A stretch of 64,000 nt of DNA from an uncultured Fibrobacteraceae bacterium. GTDB taxonomy: Bacteria; Krumholzibacteriota; Krumholzibacteriia; LZORAL124-64-63. Positions 27,001 through 33,000 of the stretch are shown piece after piece; within the stretch, counting starts at the first letter, position 1; each line of letters opens with the position of its first letter. The position numbers are program-made. Location: NCBI GenBank assembly GCA_964399195.1, contig CAYNPY010000006.1, forward strand, positions 9,621 to 73,620, read 5' to 3'.

Positions 27001-30000
27001 TTCGTGGCCTTCATCACGTCGGTGCCCATCGCCGTCGGGCTCATCCTGATGATGTACCCGCCGCTGGCCAAGGTGCGCTACGAGGAGCTGGGCCCGGTCT
27101 TCCGCAACACCCGCGTGCTGGGACTGTCGCTGGTGCAGAACTGGGTCATCGGCCCGGTGCTGATGTTCGCGCTGGCCGTCCTCTTCCTGCGCGGCTACCC
27201 GGAGTACATGGTCGGCCTCATCCTGATCGGGCTGGCGCGCTGCATCGCCATGGTCATCGTCTGGAACGACCTGGCGAAGGGCGACACCGAGTACTGCGCG
27301 GGCCTGGTGGCCTTCAACTCGGTGTTCCAGGTGCTGTTCTACTCCCTTTACGCCTGGGTCTTCATCACCGTGGTGCCGACCTGGCTGGGCCTGCCGGGCG
27401 TGGCCGTCGACATCACGATCGGCGAGATCGCGCAGAGCGTGTTCATCTACCTGGGCATCCCGTTCCTGGCCGGGATCCTGACGCGCTACTCGCTGATCCG
27501 CGCCCGCGGTCGCGACTGGTATCAGGAGCGGTTCATCCCGCGCATCAGCCCGCTGACGCTGCTCGCGCTGCTGTTCACGATCGTCGTGATGTTCTCGCTG
27601 AAGGGCGAGAGCATCGTGGCCCTGCCGCTGGACGTGGTGCGCATCGCGGTCCCGCTGCTGATCTACTTCGTGCTGATGTTCTTCATCTCGTTCTTCCTTT
27701 CGCGGAAGCTGGGCGCGTCCTACGGGCAGACGGCAACGCTGTCGTTCACGGCGGCCTCCAACAACTTCGAACTGGCCATCGCCGTGGCCGTCGCCACCTT
27801 CGGACTGCACCACGGCGCGGCGTTCGCGGCGGTGATCGGGCCGCTGGTGGAAGTGCCGGTGCTCATCGGGCTGGTCAATGTCTCGCTGTGGCTGGGGCGG
27901 CGGTACTTCCCCGGCGATGCCCCCACGATCAAAGCCGTGCGCAACTGCGCCGGGGAAGGCAGGCGGCCGTGACGAAACGCGGTCCGGACGGTGATGGCGG
28001 CGGCGCGGCGGGCGCGGAGCCGTCCTGGGTGGCCGAAGCGGTGGCCTGCCGGGCCCAGGACCGGCGCGGCTACCTGTTCCTGTGCGTGGCCAACTCGGCG
28101 CGCAGCCAGCTGGCCGAGGCCATCGCGCGCTCGCTGGCGCCGGCGCACGTGCGCGTGATGTCGGCCGGCTCGCAGCCGACGCGGGTGCGGCCGGAGGCCA
28201 TCGCCGTGCTGGCCGAGATCGGCATCGACGCGGGCGGGCAGCGCTCGAAGAACGTCGCCGAGATCGACCCGGCCCTGGTCGACACTGTCATCACGTTGTG
28301 CGGCGAGGAGGAATGCCCCGTGTTCCTGGGGGCGGCGCTCCGGCTGCACTGGGGGCTGCCGGACCCGGCTGCGGTGAGCGGCGACGAGACGGCGCGCCTG
28401 GACGCCTTCCGCGGCGTGCGCGACGAATTGCGGCGCCGGCTGGCGGTGGTGTTCGGCGGGGCGCGAACGGGGACGGGCGCGGACTAGCGGGCGCGTCGGG
28501 ACAGGGCGGGGATGCGGTCGGCCGGGGCGGGCGCGGGCGCGGACTTGACCGCCGCCGCTCCCGACAACTCGAACGGCCGGGAGCCTCCGACCAGATCGAC
28601 CGGCGGCTCGGCGCCCATCACTTCGAAGAAGGTGGCCAGGAACCGGCGCGTCAGCTCGGTCCGGCGCAGCCGGGGCGACACCAGCATCGTGCGCGGCCGC
28701 TGGTGGCCGAATCCGGGCACGCGGTGCTCTCGCAGCCGCCCGCTCTCCAGTTCCCGCGACGCCAGTTCGCGCGACACGAACCCCAGGCCGTGCCCGGCCA
28801 CGATCTGCCGCAGGACGCCGCCCAGGTCGTCGTAGTAGCAGAGGTTCGTGAACTCGTCGATGCCGCGGCCGAGCTGCTTCAGACGGCGCTTCAGGAAGCG
28901 GTAGGCGCACCCGTTGTACGTCTTGAGGAACAGGCGCCGGGGCACCAGGTCGTCGATGGCCACCGCCGGCGCGACGATCCCCAGCGACGGCGCGCTGACG
29001 AAGACCATCTCGTCCGGCGGCAGCTCCCAGCGCGGGCAGTCGGCCAGATCCAGCTCGTCGCAGTGCTCGACCACCGCCAGGTCGTAGCGGCCGGCGGCCA
29101 GCCCCTCGAGCACGTCCTCGGGCATCTCGAAAACGACATTGAGATCGAAATTCAATCCCGAGCCGCCGACGTAGCGCTCGAAGATGTCCGGCAGCCGGCC
29201 CGCGCCGAAGCAGGGCGTGCAGCAGAACGAGACGCGGTCGCGCAGCTTGTGCGCGGCCACGTTGTCCTCGAGCTGGCGCTCGATCTCCAGGATCTCCCGA
29301 GCCTTGTCCACCAGCAGCCGCCCGGCCGGCGTGGCGGCGACGCTCTCGGAGCCCCGCTCCAGCAGCGGCAGCCCGTAGTACTCCTCCAGCTGCCGGATCC
29401 GCCGCGAGACGGCTGACTGCGTCACGCACAGGCGCGCGGCCGCGGCGGTGAAGCTGCCGGCGTCGTGGACGGCGACCAGGGTGCGCAGGAGGACCAGTTC
29501 CATGCGCGCGAAGATAGCCGGGCCGCGGGCGGTTGTCCATGCGCGCCGCGCATGAGCGCCATGAGGAGCCGTCGTTTGACTTGCCCCCGCGGCAAACTAC
29601 CATCGCGCAACGGGTTCTGACGCAGAACGCGCCCCGGGAACCGGCTGAAACAGGGAGGCTCACATGCTGCAGCTGCTTGCGACGCGACGCAGGATGCTCG
29701 CGGGCCTGATCGCCGTGCTGGCGATCGGCTCGCTGGGCATCTGGGGATGCGCCGATCATCCGACCGAGTACGACAATCCCAACGACGGGATCGTCACGAC
29801 GAAGACGCCCACGGCGCTCATCGAGGCCGCGACGCTGATGGAGTGGATCGACGAGGGACGCCTCAACAGCACCGATCCGGACAGCCGCGACAAGGTCGTC
29901 GTCATCACCGTGACGACGGCCGCGGCCTACGCCGCCGGGCACATCCCCGGCTCCCAGCTGTGGAACTACGACACCGAGCTCTACCAGACGCGCCTCGAGG

Positions 30001-33000
30001 GCGTGGCTGCCGGATCCACGATGGTCGTGAGCGGCCCGGCGCTCGATACCTTCCTGAGCCGCGCCGGCATCGACGAGCACACGACTGTCGTCTTCACGGC
30101 CAGCACGACCGGCGGCGCGCGCGACCTGCGCGAGGCCACCCGCGGTTGGTGGACGCTGCGCTACTGGGGCTTCCCCAAGGAGCGGATCAAGGTCCTGCAA
30201 GGCGGCGACGCGGGCTGGACCGCGATCGAGGGCAACACCCTCGTGACCGAGGTCCCGACGATCACCCCGTCCGACTTCAGCATCCGTGACCTGGCCGCCA
30301 CCAGCGAGTTCCGCGGCGACCTGCGCACGTCGATCGGCGAGATGATCCGGGCCGTCGACGCCGTCAACAGCGGCGCGACGCCCGACGTCAAGTTCCTGGA
30401 CGTGCGCGGCGGCTCGCCGCTGCCTACCAGCAAGATGGGGCCGGCGCAGCTCGATTCCTGGAACCTCTACTACGTAGCCGGCACCTCCGGCACGCTGCTG
30501 CCGCTCGAGGATCTCGTGGCGCGCCTGGCCACCTTCGGCGTCACGGAAGCCACGCCGCTGACCTACGTCAACTGCCAGGGCGGCGTGAAGTGCACGATCC
30601 CGTTCTTCGTCCTCGACGGCATGCTCGGCTGGCCGGTGCAGTCGTACAACGGCTCGTGGGGCCAGTGGAGCGCCTACGGCACCGACACCATCGCGGACGC
30701 CTGGGAGACCGACCTCGTCACGCCCGGTACGACGACGTCGCGCAGCACGGGCACCTGGACGCCCGGCTCCGTGGCCATCGACCCGGTGGCGAACGCCGCC
30801 TACGGCCTCTCGGACCCGCGCGCCAACCAGATCGAGAACGAGGACGCGGCCTACTTCTCCAGCGGCGGCACGACGACCCCGCCCCCCGGCGGCGGCGGTG
30901 GCGGCGGCGGCAGCGGTTGCTGACGCGAACGGAATCTCCCTCCGCCCCTGCGCGGGGCGGTCACGAAACCAGCTTAAGGAGAAGTGACCCATGAATCGAA
31001 CCAGGAGCATCTTCGCGATCGCGGCCGTCGCCGCCCTGGTCGCGCTGGCGGCCCCGGCCCTGGCCGGACCCCAGTTCACCTTCGGCGACGACGACAAGGG
31101 ATCGTTCCAGATCGACGTCAAGAGCCAGTTCCAGATGACCATGCGCGACTACGACGTCGACAACGACGACGACGAGTCCGCCATGAACTTCAACTTCCGC
31201 CGCAACCGGCTGGCCTTCATGGGCGCCTGGGGCGAGAAGCTGAGCCTGTACGCGCAGACCGAATATGCCGAGGACGTGAACCTGGGCCTGTTCAGCCTGG
31301 CGGACGCGGACCAGGGCTCGGAGTTCCAGATGCTGGACGCCGTCGCCCGCATCGACCTCAGCGACGCGTTCAAGCTGAACGTGGGCAAGTTCAAGTACAA
31401 CCTGTCGCGCGAGAACCTGGAAGCCTGCGAGGATCCGCTGTCGCTGGACCGCTCGTTGTTCATCCGGGCTCCGCTGGTCACCACCCGCGACATGGGCGTC
31501 GCGATGTGGGGCAACCTGGCCGAGGGCAGGTTCCAGTACCGCCTGGACATGATGGAGGGCCGCAAGGCCGTCTCCGCGCTCGCGGCGCCGGCGAACAACT
31601 TCCGCTACAGCGCGCGGGCGCACCTGTCGCTGGGGGACTCGGAGACGGGTTACGGCTACAAGGGCACCTACCTGGGCCAGAAGAAGGTCATGACGATCGG
31701 CGCCGCGGTGCAGACCGAGCCCGAGGTCGTGTACCAGGACGTGCTGAACCGGACCGGCAAGCTGGACTACAACGCCTACACGGTGGACTTCTTCTACGAG
31801 CGCCCGGTGCAGGAGACCGGCGCCGTGACGCTGTCGGCCGCTTACGAGAACATCGACTTCGACGACGCCTACCTGGCCATGAATCCCGATCCGGGCGCGT
31901 GCGGCCTGAACGGCCAGAAGAACGGCTGGTACGCCAAGGCGGGCTACATGCTGCACACGCGTCCGCTGCAGTTCTTCGCGCGCTACGAGTCGTGGAAGTT
32001 CGCGTTGCTGAACAACGTCTACAACCAGCAGATCGACTGGCTGAGCTTCGGCGCGAACTACTTCATGATGGACAACGTGCTGAAGCTGACGGTCGAGTAC
32101 AGCGGCATGAGCTTCGACCAGAAGGGCGAGTTCGACGGGCTGACCACGAACGACAGCGGCACGCTGATCACGCAGTTGCAGATGGTGTTCTAGGCACCGG
32201 ATTCGTCGCTGAACCGGCCGGCGGGCTCCTGCGGGGGCCCGCCGGCCTCATCTTGCGTCCCGAGGCGTCGCCGGCCCGTCAGCGGCCGGTCGCCGCCGGG
32301 ACCGGCGCCGCGGGCGGCGTGACGGCGCGCAGCACGGCGTCGAGTTCGTCCGGCTCGAACTTGACCGGCAGCATGGTCGCCTGCGGCCGCGCGGCGCGCG
32401 GGTTGCGCAGCCAGCGCTCCAGCCGGGCCCGGTTCCAGGCGCTGTCGGCGGCCGCAGGATGAAAGGCGCCGGTCAGCCCCGAGAGATCAGGGCCGTCGCC
32501 GCCGGTCCCCTGCGGACCGTCGGGCGTCAGGGCCTGGTGGCAGCCGCCGCACAGGCGGGCGAAGGTGCGCAGGCTGTCGTCGCTGCCGGCGCGGAACCGC
32601 ACCTGATAGCGGGGCGAGCCGCCGAAGCGGTCCGCGTCGCGCAGCAGGACCGCGGCCAGCGTGTCGGCGGACAGCACGCCGAGGCCGAACGCCGGCATGG
32701 CCGCCGCGGGGTTGACCAGCGCCTCGCGCAGTTCCTGCTGCGTGCGCGGCCAGGCCACGGTGTCCAGGTCGATGGCCAGCCGCTCCCCCCGCCCCCCGGT
32801 CACGTGGCAGCGGCGGCAGCCCAGGCTGTCGCGCAGCGCCGCGGCCCGCGGCAGCACCGGCGATCCGGGCAGCGCCCATGCCGCCGCCGCGCCGGTCAGC
32901 AGCCGGTGATGGGCCAGGTCCGGCCGCGCGGCGCGCGCGTCGCCGCGGTGGCAGTCGACGCAGCCGCCGTGGCGCGCGTAGTGCGGCGCGTGGCACTGCA

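Follow-up and report, generated by a model that had tools for sequence, protein, structure and literature searches.

The closest described counterparts of the system considered here are the products of the ext genes of Geobacter sulfurreducens. ExtH has been described as just a rhodanese-like lipoprotein, and in the Geobacterales a LysR gene lies divergently upstream of extH (PMC6148476). An extI mutant of G. sulfurreducens is impaired in selenite and tellurite reduction and in selenite uptake (PMC5877670), and a 2022 review, which relays the work of Jahan 2019, states that the outer-membrane localisation of ExtH in Geobacter depends on ExtI; the same review regarded ExtI as unique to the Geobacteraceae (PMC8981825). 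The genes extK and extL (gsu2937 and gsu2936) have been shown to encode one protein, MccSep, a periplasmic pentaheme enzyme containing selenocysteine (Sec), which is a polysulfide reductase essential for the respiration of elemental sulfur (S0) and which accepts selenite as an additional substrate in vitro (PMC13510729). Its authors identified C239 as the heme-ligating cysteine of the Geobacter enzyme, likened its catalysis to that of thioredoxin reductase (TrxR), did not discuss extH or extI, and described the outer-membrane route and the sulfur-transfer partners as not elucidated (PMC13510729). Here we consider an extH–extI pair in a 64,000-nucleotide stretch of contig CAYNPY010000006.1 (assembly GCA_964399195.1), hereafter the window, from an uncultured bacterium of the Krumholzibacteriota, where ExtH ends in a flexible, glycine-rich tail with a terminal cysteine and ExtI carries an invariant cysteine in a predicted constriction loop.

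The window has a GC content of about 71%, and the reading of its open reading frames (ORFs) places extH at 29664–30923 on the forward strand (419 aa) and extI directly downstream at 30991–32193 on the same strand (400 aa), as expected from the initial annotation, which had described a lipoprotein gene followed by one for an outer-membrane beta-barrel. The annotation had likened the two genes to the extH–extI pair of G. sulfurreducens, and the NCBIfam models uphold this identification, both proteins aligning along their whole length with scores that exceed the curated equivalog cutoffs: ExtH gives 301.2 bits against NF040901 (cutoff 200), with residues 7–397 on profile positions 2–430 of 430, and ExtI gives 580.7 bits against NF040900 (cutoff 150), with residues 8–400 on profile positions 8–403 of 403. 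The LysR gene that had been placed beside the pair is a divergent ORF at 28484–29503 on the reverse strand, a regulator of the multiheme-cytochrome-associated type (NF041036, 285.5 bits, cutoff 210), and a divergent LysR gene upstream of extH is common to many of the loci fetched for comparison. Between regulator and extH lies a promoter-like region (29511–29603) with two sigma70-like sites where 0.1 would be expected, at 29576–29603 on the forward and 29539–29511 on the reverse strand, and with the palindrome ATGCGCG-C-CGCGCAT (29539–29553), which is of the T-N11-A type and is a putative LysR binding site. The nearest genomes are Candidatus Krumholzibacteriia and Eisenbacteria metagenome-assembled genomes (MAGs), in keeping with the claim that the lineage is unrelated to Geobacter. 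On sequence grounds this is a genuine ExtH–ExtI pair, outside Geobacter and in a different phylum.

The most distinctive feature of the pair is the C-terminus of ExtH, where a poly-Gly-Cys end had been noted. The tail, SSGGTTTPPPGGGGGGGGSGC (30855–30920), finishes with Cys419 (codon 30918–30920), and the stop codon TGA follows. Comparison was made with 120 ExtH homologues from databases and with 80 loci fetched from species-representative genomes, the locus counts not being phylogenetically independent and the taxon names of the loci being the labels in the genome records. The terminal residue is cysteine in all 120 homologues, forming an invariant alignment column, and the penultimate residue is glycine in 116 of them. 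The linker that precedes it measures 19–26 aa (median 21) and consists of 44% Gly, 19% Ser, 15% Thr and 7% Pro, rising to 69% Gly over the last nine positions, with bulky and basic residues nearly absent. Its length is held although the tail-bearing proteins share just about 40–50% identity, and the terminal cysteine is kept across bacterial phyla and archaea at 30–40% core identity. Among the locus-derived sequences, 64 of 69 Cys-type ExtH proteins, haloarchaeal ones included, have a Cys-ended tail, and the Geobacterales orthologues likewise carry a Gly-rich, Cys-terminated tail. Residues 404–419 have a predicted local confidence (pLDDT) below 50 in the AlphaFold2 model, i.e. they are modelled as disordered. 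Whether orthologues share the tail had been left to an alignment, and the alignments indicate that the Gly-rich linker and its terminal cysteine are a family-wide feature, not a local oddity. The suggestion that the tail works as a swinging arm is plausible, if unproven, since it fits the constrained length, the slim residue composition and the predicted disorder. None of the papers on the ext genes consulted here mentions the ExtH tail or the ExtI cysteine; the ExtH/ExtI family is known, and the family-wide Cys tail, as read from these comparisons, appears to be undescribed.

The remainder of ExtH agrees with an exported sulfurtransferase. The signal peptide (29664–29750), as read from the sequence, has a twin-arginine-like n-region, TRRRML, and the lipobox that had been given as LGIWGC is ...LGIWG-C29 (codon 29748–29750), the C29 column being invariant. 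A lipobox is found in 112 of the 120 homologues and an RR motif in 69. The lipobox, with Trp at position -2 (IWGC/LWGC), stands alongside the twin-arginine-like motif, and in many lineages the lipoprotein may be exported by Tat. The two rhodanese-like repeats also stood: Pfam supports the N-terminal domain, and alignment with sulfurtransferases in the Protein Data Bank (PDB) together with AlphaFold2 and Foldseek supports the whole core. The ExtH model has a mean pLDDT of 88.7 and a predicted TM-score (pTM) of 0.83, is confident over residues ~45–400 and finds TST/MST-type sulfurtransferases in Foldseek with target TM-scores of 0.74–0.81. The CQGGVKC loop proposed as the active site is C304-QGGVK-C310 in the C-terminal rhodanese domain, of the six-residue sulfurtransferase type, and its Cys304 (codon 30573–30575) forms an invariant column and aligns with the catalytic Cys of 1UAR; the loop reads CQGGVKC here versus CASGxRA in most family members. 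No cysteine of ExtH other than C29, C304 and C419 is invariant in the alignments, and sulfurtransferase activity is predicted from sequence and model. Between the rhodanese core and the tail lies a conserved C-terminal extension (residues 339–397, 30678–30854; pLDDT 92–97), with helices at 374–379 and 389–399 and the invariant residues W347, R360, D384, R386, Q389, D394 and Y397. A search with the 81-aa extension plus tail against 1.84 billion representatives returned ExtH-type proteins only, plus one unrelated repeat protein (P0241), which indicates that this module is not reused in other architectures.

ExtI, annotated as a relative of phosphate-selective porins with the C-terminus ...QMVF, is borne out as such by Pfam (Porin_O_P, PF07396, E = 1.4e-13) and by a 16-strand AlphaFold2 model (pLDDT 76, pTM 0.76), for which OprP (2O4V) is the top Foldseek match, with OprO and the OmpF/PhoE class also among the top matches. 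The most conserved block of the protein, GKFKYNLSRENLEA-C-ExPLxLDRSLF, has Cys146 (codon 31426–31428) at its centre, a residue that is present in 62 of 62 locus orthologues and in 65 of 65 database homologues and that is the sole Cys past the first 25 residues in 42 of those 62 orthologues. The model assigns Cys146 to loop L3 (residues 136–165, 31396–31485), the 30-residue connection being taken as L3 because tight turns at 81–83 and 125–126 follow strands 2 and 4. In porin structures of the OprP/OprO/OmpF class L3 forms the constriction. A second Porin_O_P gene in the window (18589–19860) has no detectable similarity to ExtI and is without the Cys block.

The partner genes known from Geobacter are present on both sides of the pair. 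Downstream of extI, and convergent with it, a run of reverse-strand genes leads from extS to extM: extS (32279–33124), a c-type cytochrome lipoprotein with four CxxCH motifs (NF040971, 220 bits, cutoff 100); extQ (33100–33546), a membrane subunit of the cytochrome b C-terminal/PetD-like kind (NF040970, 163 bits, cutoff 150); extP (33543–34163), a cytochrome b6-type subunit (NF040969, 225 bits, below the cutoff of 290; Pfam Cytochrome_B E = 9e-37); extO (34160–34567), a 135-aa Rieske Fe-S protein with a Tat signal, matched by Rieske/PetC models and bearing CTHLGC...CPCHG motifs; extN (34522–35763), a multiheme cytochrome with eight CxxCH motifs (NF040967, 469 bits; NF040968, 474 bits; both cutoff 200); and extM (35669–37627), a cytochrome with twelve (NF040943, 899.5 bits, cutoff 800). 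Upstream, the candidate Sec-cytochrome that had been proposed is an orthologue of ExtKL/MccSep (14821–16179, forward strand) with five CxxCH motifs; its reading frame contains a TGA at 15796–15798, and the halves to either side of this codon score 435 and 106 bits against NF040886 (cutoff 250); its Sec-site peptide is NRAGHGIPDG-U-PTPNR versus NHAGHSIPDGUPTPNR in Geobacter, and a 7-bp SECIS-like hairpin (15808–15828) begins 12 nt past the UGA. ExtH, ExtI, ExtS, ExtQ, ExtN, ExtM and ExtKL all lie above their curated cutoffs, with ExtP below. Gene callers would split the selenoprotein gene into ORFs of 325 and 120 aa. A small ExtJ-like gene (14254–14721, forward strand) precedes it, a weak assignment (NF040942, 32.5 bits, below the cutoff of 52.5), although the close relative L002 has a gene 54% identical to it in the equivalent place upstream of extKL. 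The MccSep gene directly follows this ExtJ-like gene together with cysteine synthase CysK (13269–14222) and an Rrf2-family regulator (12744–13205), a neighbourhood that possibly links sulfide production to cysteine synthesis.

In essentially all bacterial loci where the contig extends far enough, ExtI directly follows ExtH, in Krumholzibacteriia, Eisenbacteria, Geobacterales, Desulfuromonadales, Nitrospirota and Burkholderiaceae, so that the fetched loci extend ExtI beyond the Geobacteraceae to which it was confined in PMC8981825. ExtKL or ExtM–Q are usually nearby in the fetched bacterial loci, and in L002, the closest relative, extJ–extKL abuts LysR–extHI. The seven haloarchaeal homologues (L070, with a span of 5803–11518, L040, L057, L059, L066, L075 and L077) all keep the lipobox and a Cys-ended tail, acidic in composition, e.g. 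...DDDDDWAC, and none has ExtI, haloarchaea having no outer membrane. Next to each of these genes are those for a molybdenum (Mo) enzyme, for an Fe-S subunit and for a membrane subunit; among solved structures, the Mo-enzyme is closest to Thermus PsrABC (PDB 2VPW, E = 1e-55). The haloarchaeal locus L070 also contains, at 2659–3852, a rhodanese/metallo-beta-lactamase fusion resembling persulfide dioxygenase. In some Geopsychrobacteraceae and Geobacterales a distant (~25% identity) molybdopterin oxidoreductase and an Fe-S subunit lie beside ExtH–ExtI, at ~9.5–12 kb in L046 and L053 and upstream in L011, L019, L022 and L034. In bacteria, too, reductases of the Mo type and of the heme type may thus be able to replace each other as partners of ExtH–ExtI.

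In four distant ExtH-like genes, three from Nitrospirota MAGs and one from a MAG labelled Betaproteobacteria, the position of the catalytic Cys is taken precisely by an in-frame TGA (L031:6874, L037:6847, L052:1953 and L068:6814; context ..VY-U-RTGVIASSAFF..), followed by ~35 nt that are nearly identical among the four. The products are probably rhodaneses of the Sec type, and three of them lack a terminal Cys and end in ..PIAPGY or ..CNTKL; the association of a Sec-type active site with loss of the tail Cys has a nominal Fisher p = 0.003, is confounded by shared ancestry and is unused here as evidence.

Taken together, these observations lead us to propose that extH–extI is the module by which chalcogen enters at the outer membrane and is handed on in an MccSep-type S0/polysulfide respiration system, a reading that we consider evenly balanced between right and wrong. 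In this proposal ExtI would be an OprP-like anion channel whose constriction-type L3 bears one invariant cysteine, and ExtH a lipoprotein with two rhodanese domains in tandem, held beside it at the outer membrane, with Cys304 as the catalytic residue and with a slim, disordered tether of ~22 Gly/Ser/Thr/Pro-type residues whose tip is the free-carboxyl Cys419. Polysulfide or activated S0, and adventitiously selenite, would enter via ExtI and be captured covalently on protein thiols as persulfide, polysulfide or selenotrisulfide; the tether Cys would then shuttle the chalcogen among the porin (or the substrate), the active site of the rhodanese and MccSep in the periplasm, and MccSep would be reduced via ExtM/N/S and the ExtOPQ cytochrome b/Rieske complex. 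We infer the thiol-relay chemistry throughout, and polysulfide would be the physiological substrate in this organism. The haloarchaeal pairing of a tailed rhodanese with a PsrABC-like enzyme is, as we see it, an independent convergence on polysulfide, and the window context, where hyp genes accompany a group-3 [NiFe] hydrogenase and CysK adjoins MccSep, speaks for the same reading. Selenite is probably a secondary rather than a dedicated substrate, reflecting the same thiol chemistry. A stronger form of the idea, which we think improbable on balance though worth stating, is that ExtH and ExtI jointly transport chalcogen across the outer membrane by a covalent thiol relay: the poly-Gly tether would thread the ExtI barrel, its terminal thiol would exchange sulfane sulfur or selenium with the L3 Cys at the constriction, and the tether would return the atom or atoms to Cys304, and from there to the periplasmic Sec/heme MccSep.

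Several points weigh against the proposed polysulfide module. The published extI phenotypes concern selenite and tellurite only, not sulfur (PMC5877670). In the window mccsep lies ~13 kb from extHI, so that their co-regulation is no more than putative. The lumen-facing position of Cys146 is drawn by analogy from porin architecture, residues 145–147 having a pLDDT below 50, and ExtH would sit at the outer membrane on either its periplasmic or its cell-surface side. Contact of the tail with Cys304 or with Cys146 of ExtI, and the formation of a covalent intermediate, are hypothetical. A few ExtH-like proteins are without the tail Cys, and the ExtI Cys is kept where the partner ExtH has none (L029, L037 and L079), which speaks against a strict coupling of the two cysteines and implies that the relay is not obligatory in all lineages.

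Other readings concern either the substrate or the tail. The initial annotation inferred a dedicated periplasmic selenium-acquisition route, in which ExtI would import selenite, the ExtH thiols would form a selenotrisulfide or perselenide on the arm, and the product would be delivered for selenoprotein synthesis or detoxifying reduction, selenium being the physiological substrate. The organism uses Sec, in MccSep, some ExtH-like relatives appear to be selenoproteins themselves, and thiols react readily with selenite. The impaired selenite/tellurite reduction and selenite uptake of the Geobacter extI mutant (PMC5877670; Jahan 2019, as relayed in PMC8981825) and the reduction of selenite by MccSep in vitro (PMC13510729) point the same way, and NCBIfam calls the whole cluster a 'selenite/tellurite reduction operon'. 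MccSep is, however, the polysulfide reductase on which S0 respiration depends (PMC13510729), and a respiratory-scale chain, with a cytochrome b/Rieske pair and cytochromes of 8, 12 and 4 CxxCH motifs, is out of proportion for the acquisition of a trace element. The same kind of Cys-tailed rhodanese stands beside Psr-like polysulfide reductases in haloarchaea, organisms that are not known to use Sec. Family scans and ARAGORN found none of selA, selB, selD or a tRNA-Sec gene in the window, ARAGORN reporting no tRNA genes there at all. We therefore regard a dedicated selenium route as not supported and as unlikely, if still one of the better alternatives. Far less credible is the handling of arsenic or other soft metals, with the thiol tail and rhodanese fold binding or reducing arsenic, or sequestering metals, together with the ars operon. 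ArsR–ACR3–ArsC do lie immediately upstream (26453–28487), with ArsP-, ArsF- and ArsG-like genes at 20297–23562, and some rhodanese-fold proteins are arsenate reductases; but the ars neighbourhood is unconserved, close relatives having extJ–extKL abutting LysR–extHI, the conserved partners are polysulfide reductases, and Cdc25/Acr2 enzymes have a seven-residue C-x5-R loop, whereas that of ExtH has six residues and follows the sulfurtransferase pattern C-x4-[K/R].

The tail, in turn, might be a static anchor, docking ExtH to the porin through a permanent Cys419–Cys146 disulfide or by plugging or threading the pore, with no carrier role. The ExtI-dependence of ExtH localisation reported for Geobacter (PMC8981825), the invariance of both cysteines and the fact that poly-Gly would be the slimmest peptide for a narrow pore are consistent with this; nevertheless haloarchaea without ExtI still keep the Cys-terminated tail, the ExtI Cys persists beside tail-Cys-less partners, and ExtH is already predicted to be lipid-anchored, and we consider an anchor distinctly unlikely. 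Exported proteins commonly have low-complexity ends rich in Gly and Ser, and the NCBIfam ExtH model stops before the tail, which might make the tail a linker remnant with an incidental terminal Cys, yet a cysteine that is terminal in every one of the 120 homologues from bacterial phyla to archaea, a length within 19–26 aa despite low complexity, and its retention in haloarchaea that have switched to an acidic composition leave this reading very little room. That all 120 homologues end exactly in ...x-C raised the suspicion of an unrecognised UGA-Sec, i.e. a Cys-Sec (GCU) redox tail in which the TGA right after Gly-Cys is decoded to give a centre like the Gly-Cys-Sec of thioredoxin reductase. 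The organism has Sec decoding, all 11 of the high-GC Krumholzibacteriia/Eisenbacteria-clade loci have a TGA stop, and a GC hairpin, CCGCCCC-UGCGC-GGGGCGG (30942–30960, forward strand), begins 19 nt past the extH stop and ~15 nt before the extI ribosome-binding site, is kept in five close relatives and shows a single compensatory change, from C-G to U-A, in L003. TGA is, though, the commonest stop codon in ~70% GC genomes, and across the 80 fetched loci the stop after the terminal Cys depends on lineage, being TGA, TAG or TAA, with TAG or TAA at many Geobacterales, Desulfuromonadales, Nitrospirota and haloarchaeal loci. The frame beyond the stop is conserved in neither sequence nor length, no Cys-Cys variants in place of Cys-Sec occur among the homologues, and the spacer from the extH TGA to the hairpin stem carries a 1-nt indel in L002. 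Comparative evidence alone was used for the RNA structure, since single-sequence folds of the UGA contexts (z = -0.7 to +0.4) are undistinctive in the GC-rich background, and the fold energy weighed against the Cys-Sec tail (z = -0.2 to -0.5) does not stand out either. The mixed stops, the unconserved frame and the indel led us to reject the Cys-Sec tail, to which we attach the least credence of all, and to take Cys419 as the true C-terminus; the indel and the TAG/TAA stops elsewhere likewise rule out the hairpin as a SECIS element. It is instead a stem-loop conserved between the two cistrons, which may influence how stable the mRNA is or how strongly extH and extI are expressed relative to each other, and an Rfam scan of the window at the gathering threshold returned no known RNA family.

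If the covalent relay described above were true, outer-membrane uptake would proceed by covalent hand-off, not by diffusion, and this would answer how insoluble S0 or polysulfide gets to periplasmic reductases. For the crossing of the outer membrane by S0/polysulfide, a question raised in PMC13510729, the pair offers three specific residues to mutate. The neighbours of mccsep in Geobacter, linked to that gene across at least four phyla, include those for a one-thiol porin and a thiol-tipped rhodanese, and the haloarchaeal link to Psr suggests that the tailed rhodanese is a sulfur carrier of general use outside the cytoplasm. Its naming for selenite/tellurite reduction may mislead about the cluster, which, we would argue, is primarily a sulfur-respiration system, the wider distribution of which implies S0/polysulfide respiration in poorly known candidate phyla.

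A number of other genes in the window are of interest in their own right. Just downstream of MccSep, on the reverse strand (16256–19860), are ApbE (FAD:protein FMN transferase), an FMN_bind-domain protein and the second porin noted above, which may form another extracytoplasmic redox module. Between there and extHI lie two groups of metalloid- and thiol-related genes, one (19972–23562) with an ArsR/BigR-like regulator and ArsP-type permease, thioredoxin-like, CcdA/DsbD-like and ArsF-like genes, the other being the ArsR–ACR3–ArsC group, with the molybdenum cofactor (Moco) genes MoeA, MoaB/MOSC and MoaC between the two; the ars/Moco insertion that separates extKL from extHI is absent in L002. 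A SoxB/UshA-like gene (757–2379) has a weak match to the 'PCGU' selenoprotein family, and its candidacy as a second Cys- or Sec-tailed protein is ruled out by its end, ...GAPGR. The group-3 [NiFe] hydrogenase (58101–62587, reverse strand) resembles the alpha, gamma and beta subunits of sulfhydrogenase, all scores being below cutoffs, and is accompanied by a maturation protease and by a complete hypABFCDE set (38115–44304, forward strand), which suggests H2 metabolism near the sulfur-respiration genes. At 44250–45845 on the reverse strand, a 531-aa protein with a Thiol_cytolysin match in Pfam (E = 2.8e-42) resembles cholesterol-dependent cytolysins, unexpected in a Krumholzibacteriia-like environmental bacterium, and a multicopper oxidase that carries a FlgD Ig-like domain at its C-terminus (50504–52675, reverse strand) adjoins a Ser/Thr protein kinase of 928 aa that contains PD40 repeats (47618–50404, reverse strand).

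Considering how the locus compares with known systems, the ExtH/ExtI pair of G. sulfurreducens (GSU2940/GSU2939) is the nearest, with the same lipoprotein-then-porin order, a divergent LysR gene, ExtKL and ExtM–S partners and a Cys-ended tail; core identity to the Geobacterales orthologues is about 45% for ExtH and 57–60% for ExtI. The arrangement differs in that extS–M are convergent here, not co-directional, and in that extJ–extKL is displaced by 13 kb of ars, Moco and other genes. ExtI shares with OprP and OprO of Pseudomonas aeruginosa (2O4V, 4RJW) the Porin_O_P family, the 16-strand barrel and the long L3, at an identity of 12–13%, and differs from them in its genetic coupling to a rhodanese lipoprotein; its L3 carries an invariant Cys within the invariant acidic/basic block RENLEACExPLxLDRS.

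For ExtH the comparisons are functional. Sud of Wolinella succinogenes, known from work by Klimmek et al. in 1998–1999 and Lin et al. in 2004, is reportedly a periplasmic polysulfide-sulfur transferase feeding PsrABC. As in Sud, where an extracytoplasmic Cys in a rhodanese fold covalently binds polysulfide sulfur and hands it on to a polysulfide reductase, ExtH-like genes of haloarchaea adjoin Psr-like enzymes; Sud, however, is a soluble, single-domain homodimer without lipid anchor, porin partner or Cys-terminated tail, whereas ExtH is a tandem-domain lipoprotein with an extension and a tether, and the likeness would be a functional analogy with only the superfamily fold in common, not family membership. 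The tether itself recalls the C-terminal GGCGG carrier arm of SoxY, from the SoxYZ thiosulfate-oxidation system, and the C-terminal Cys arm of DsrC, in which a flexible, Gly-flanked Cys binds sulfur intermediates covalently and presents them to several partners. The folds are unrelated to that of ExtH (Ig-like in SoxY, a helical bundle in DsrC), NCBIfam and Pfam give ExtH no Sox family match, and the placement of the Cys differs, being followed by Gly-Gly in SoxY, penultimate in DsrC and the very last residue in ExtH, which ends ...GSGC with nothing past the Cys, at the tip of a ~21-aa tether fused to the sulfurtransferase itself. The Sox system is also oxidative and the ExtH system reductive, and an action of the ExtH tether like that of the SoxY or DsrC arm would be an analogy only. 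A similar resemblance extends to the Gly-Cys-Sec-Gly arm of mammalian thioredoxin reductase, likewise a flexible C-terminal Gly-Cys tail, one that moves redox equivalents or chalcogen from site to site. ExtH differs from it in having no Sec after the Cys, no flavoprotein core and a tail that is far longer and of low complexity.

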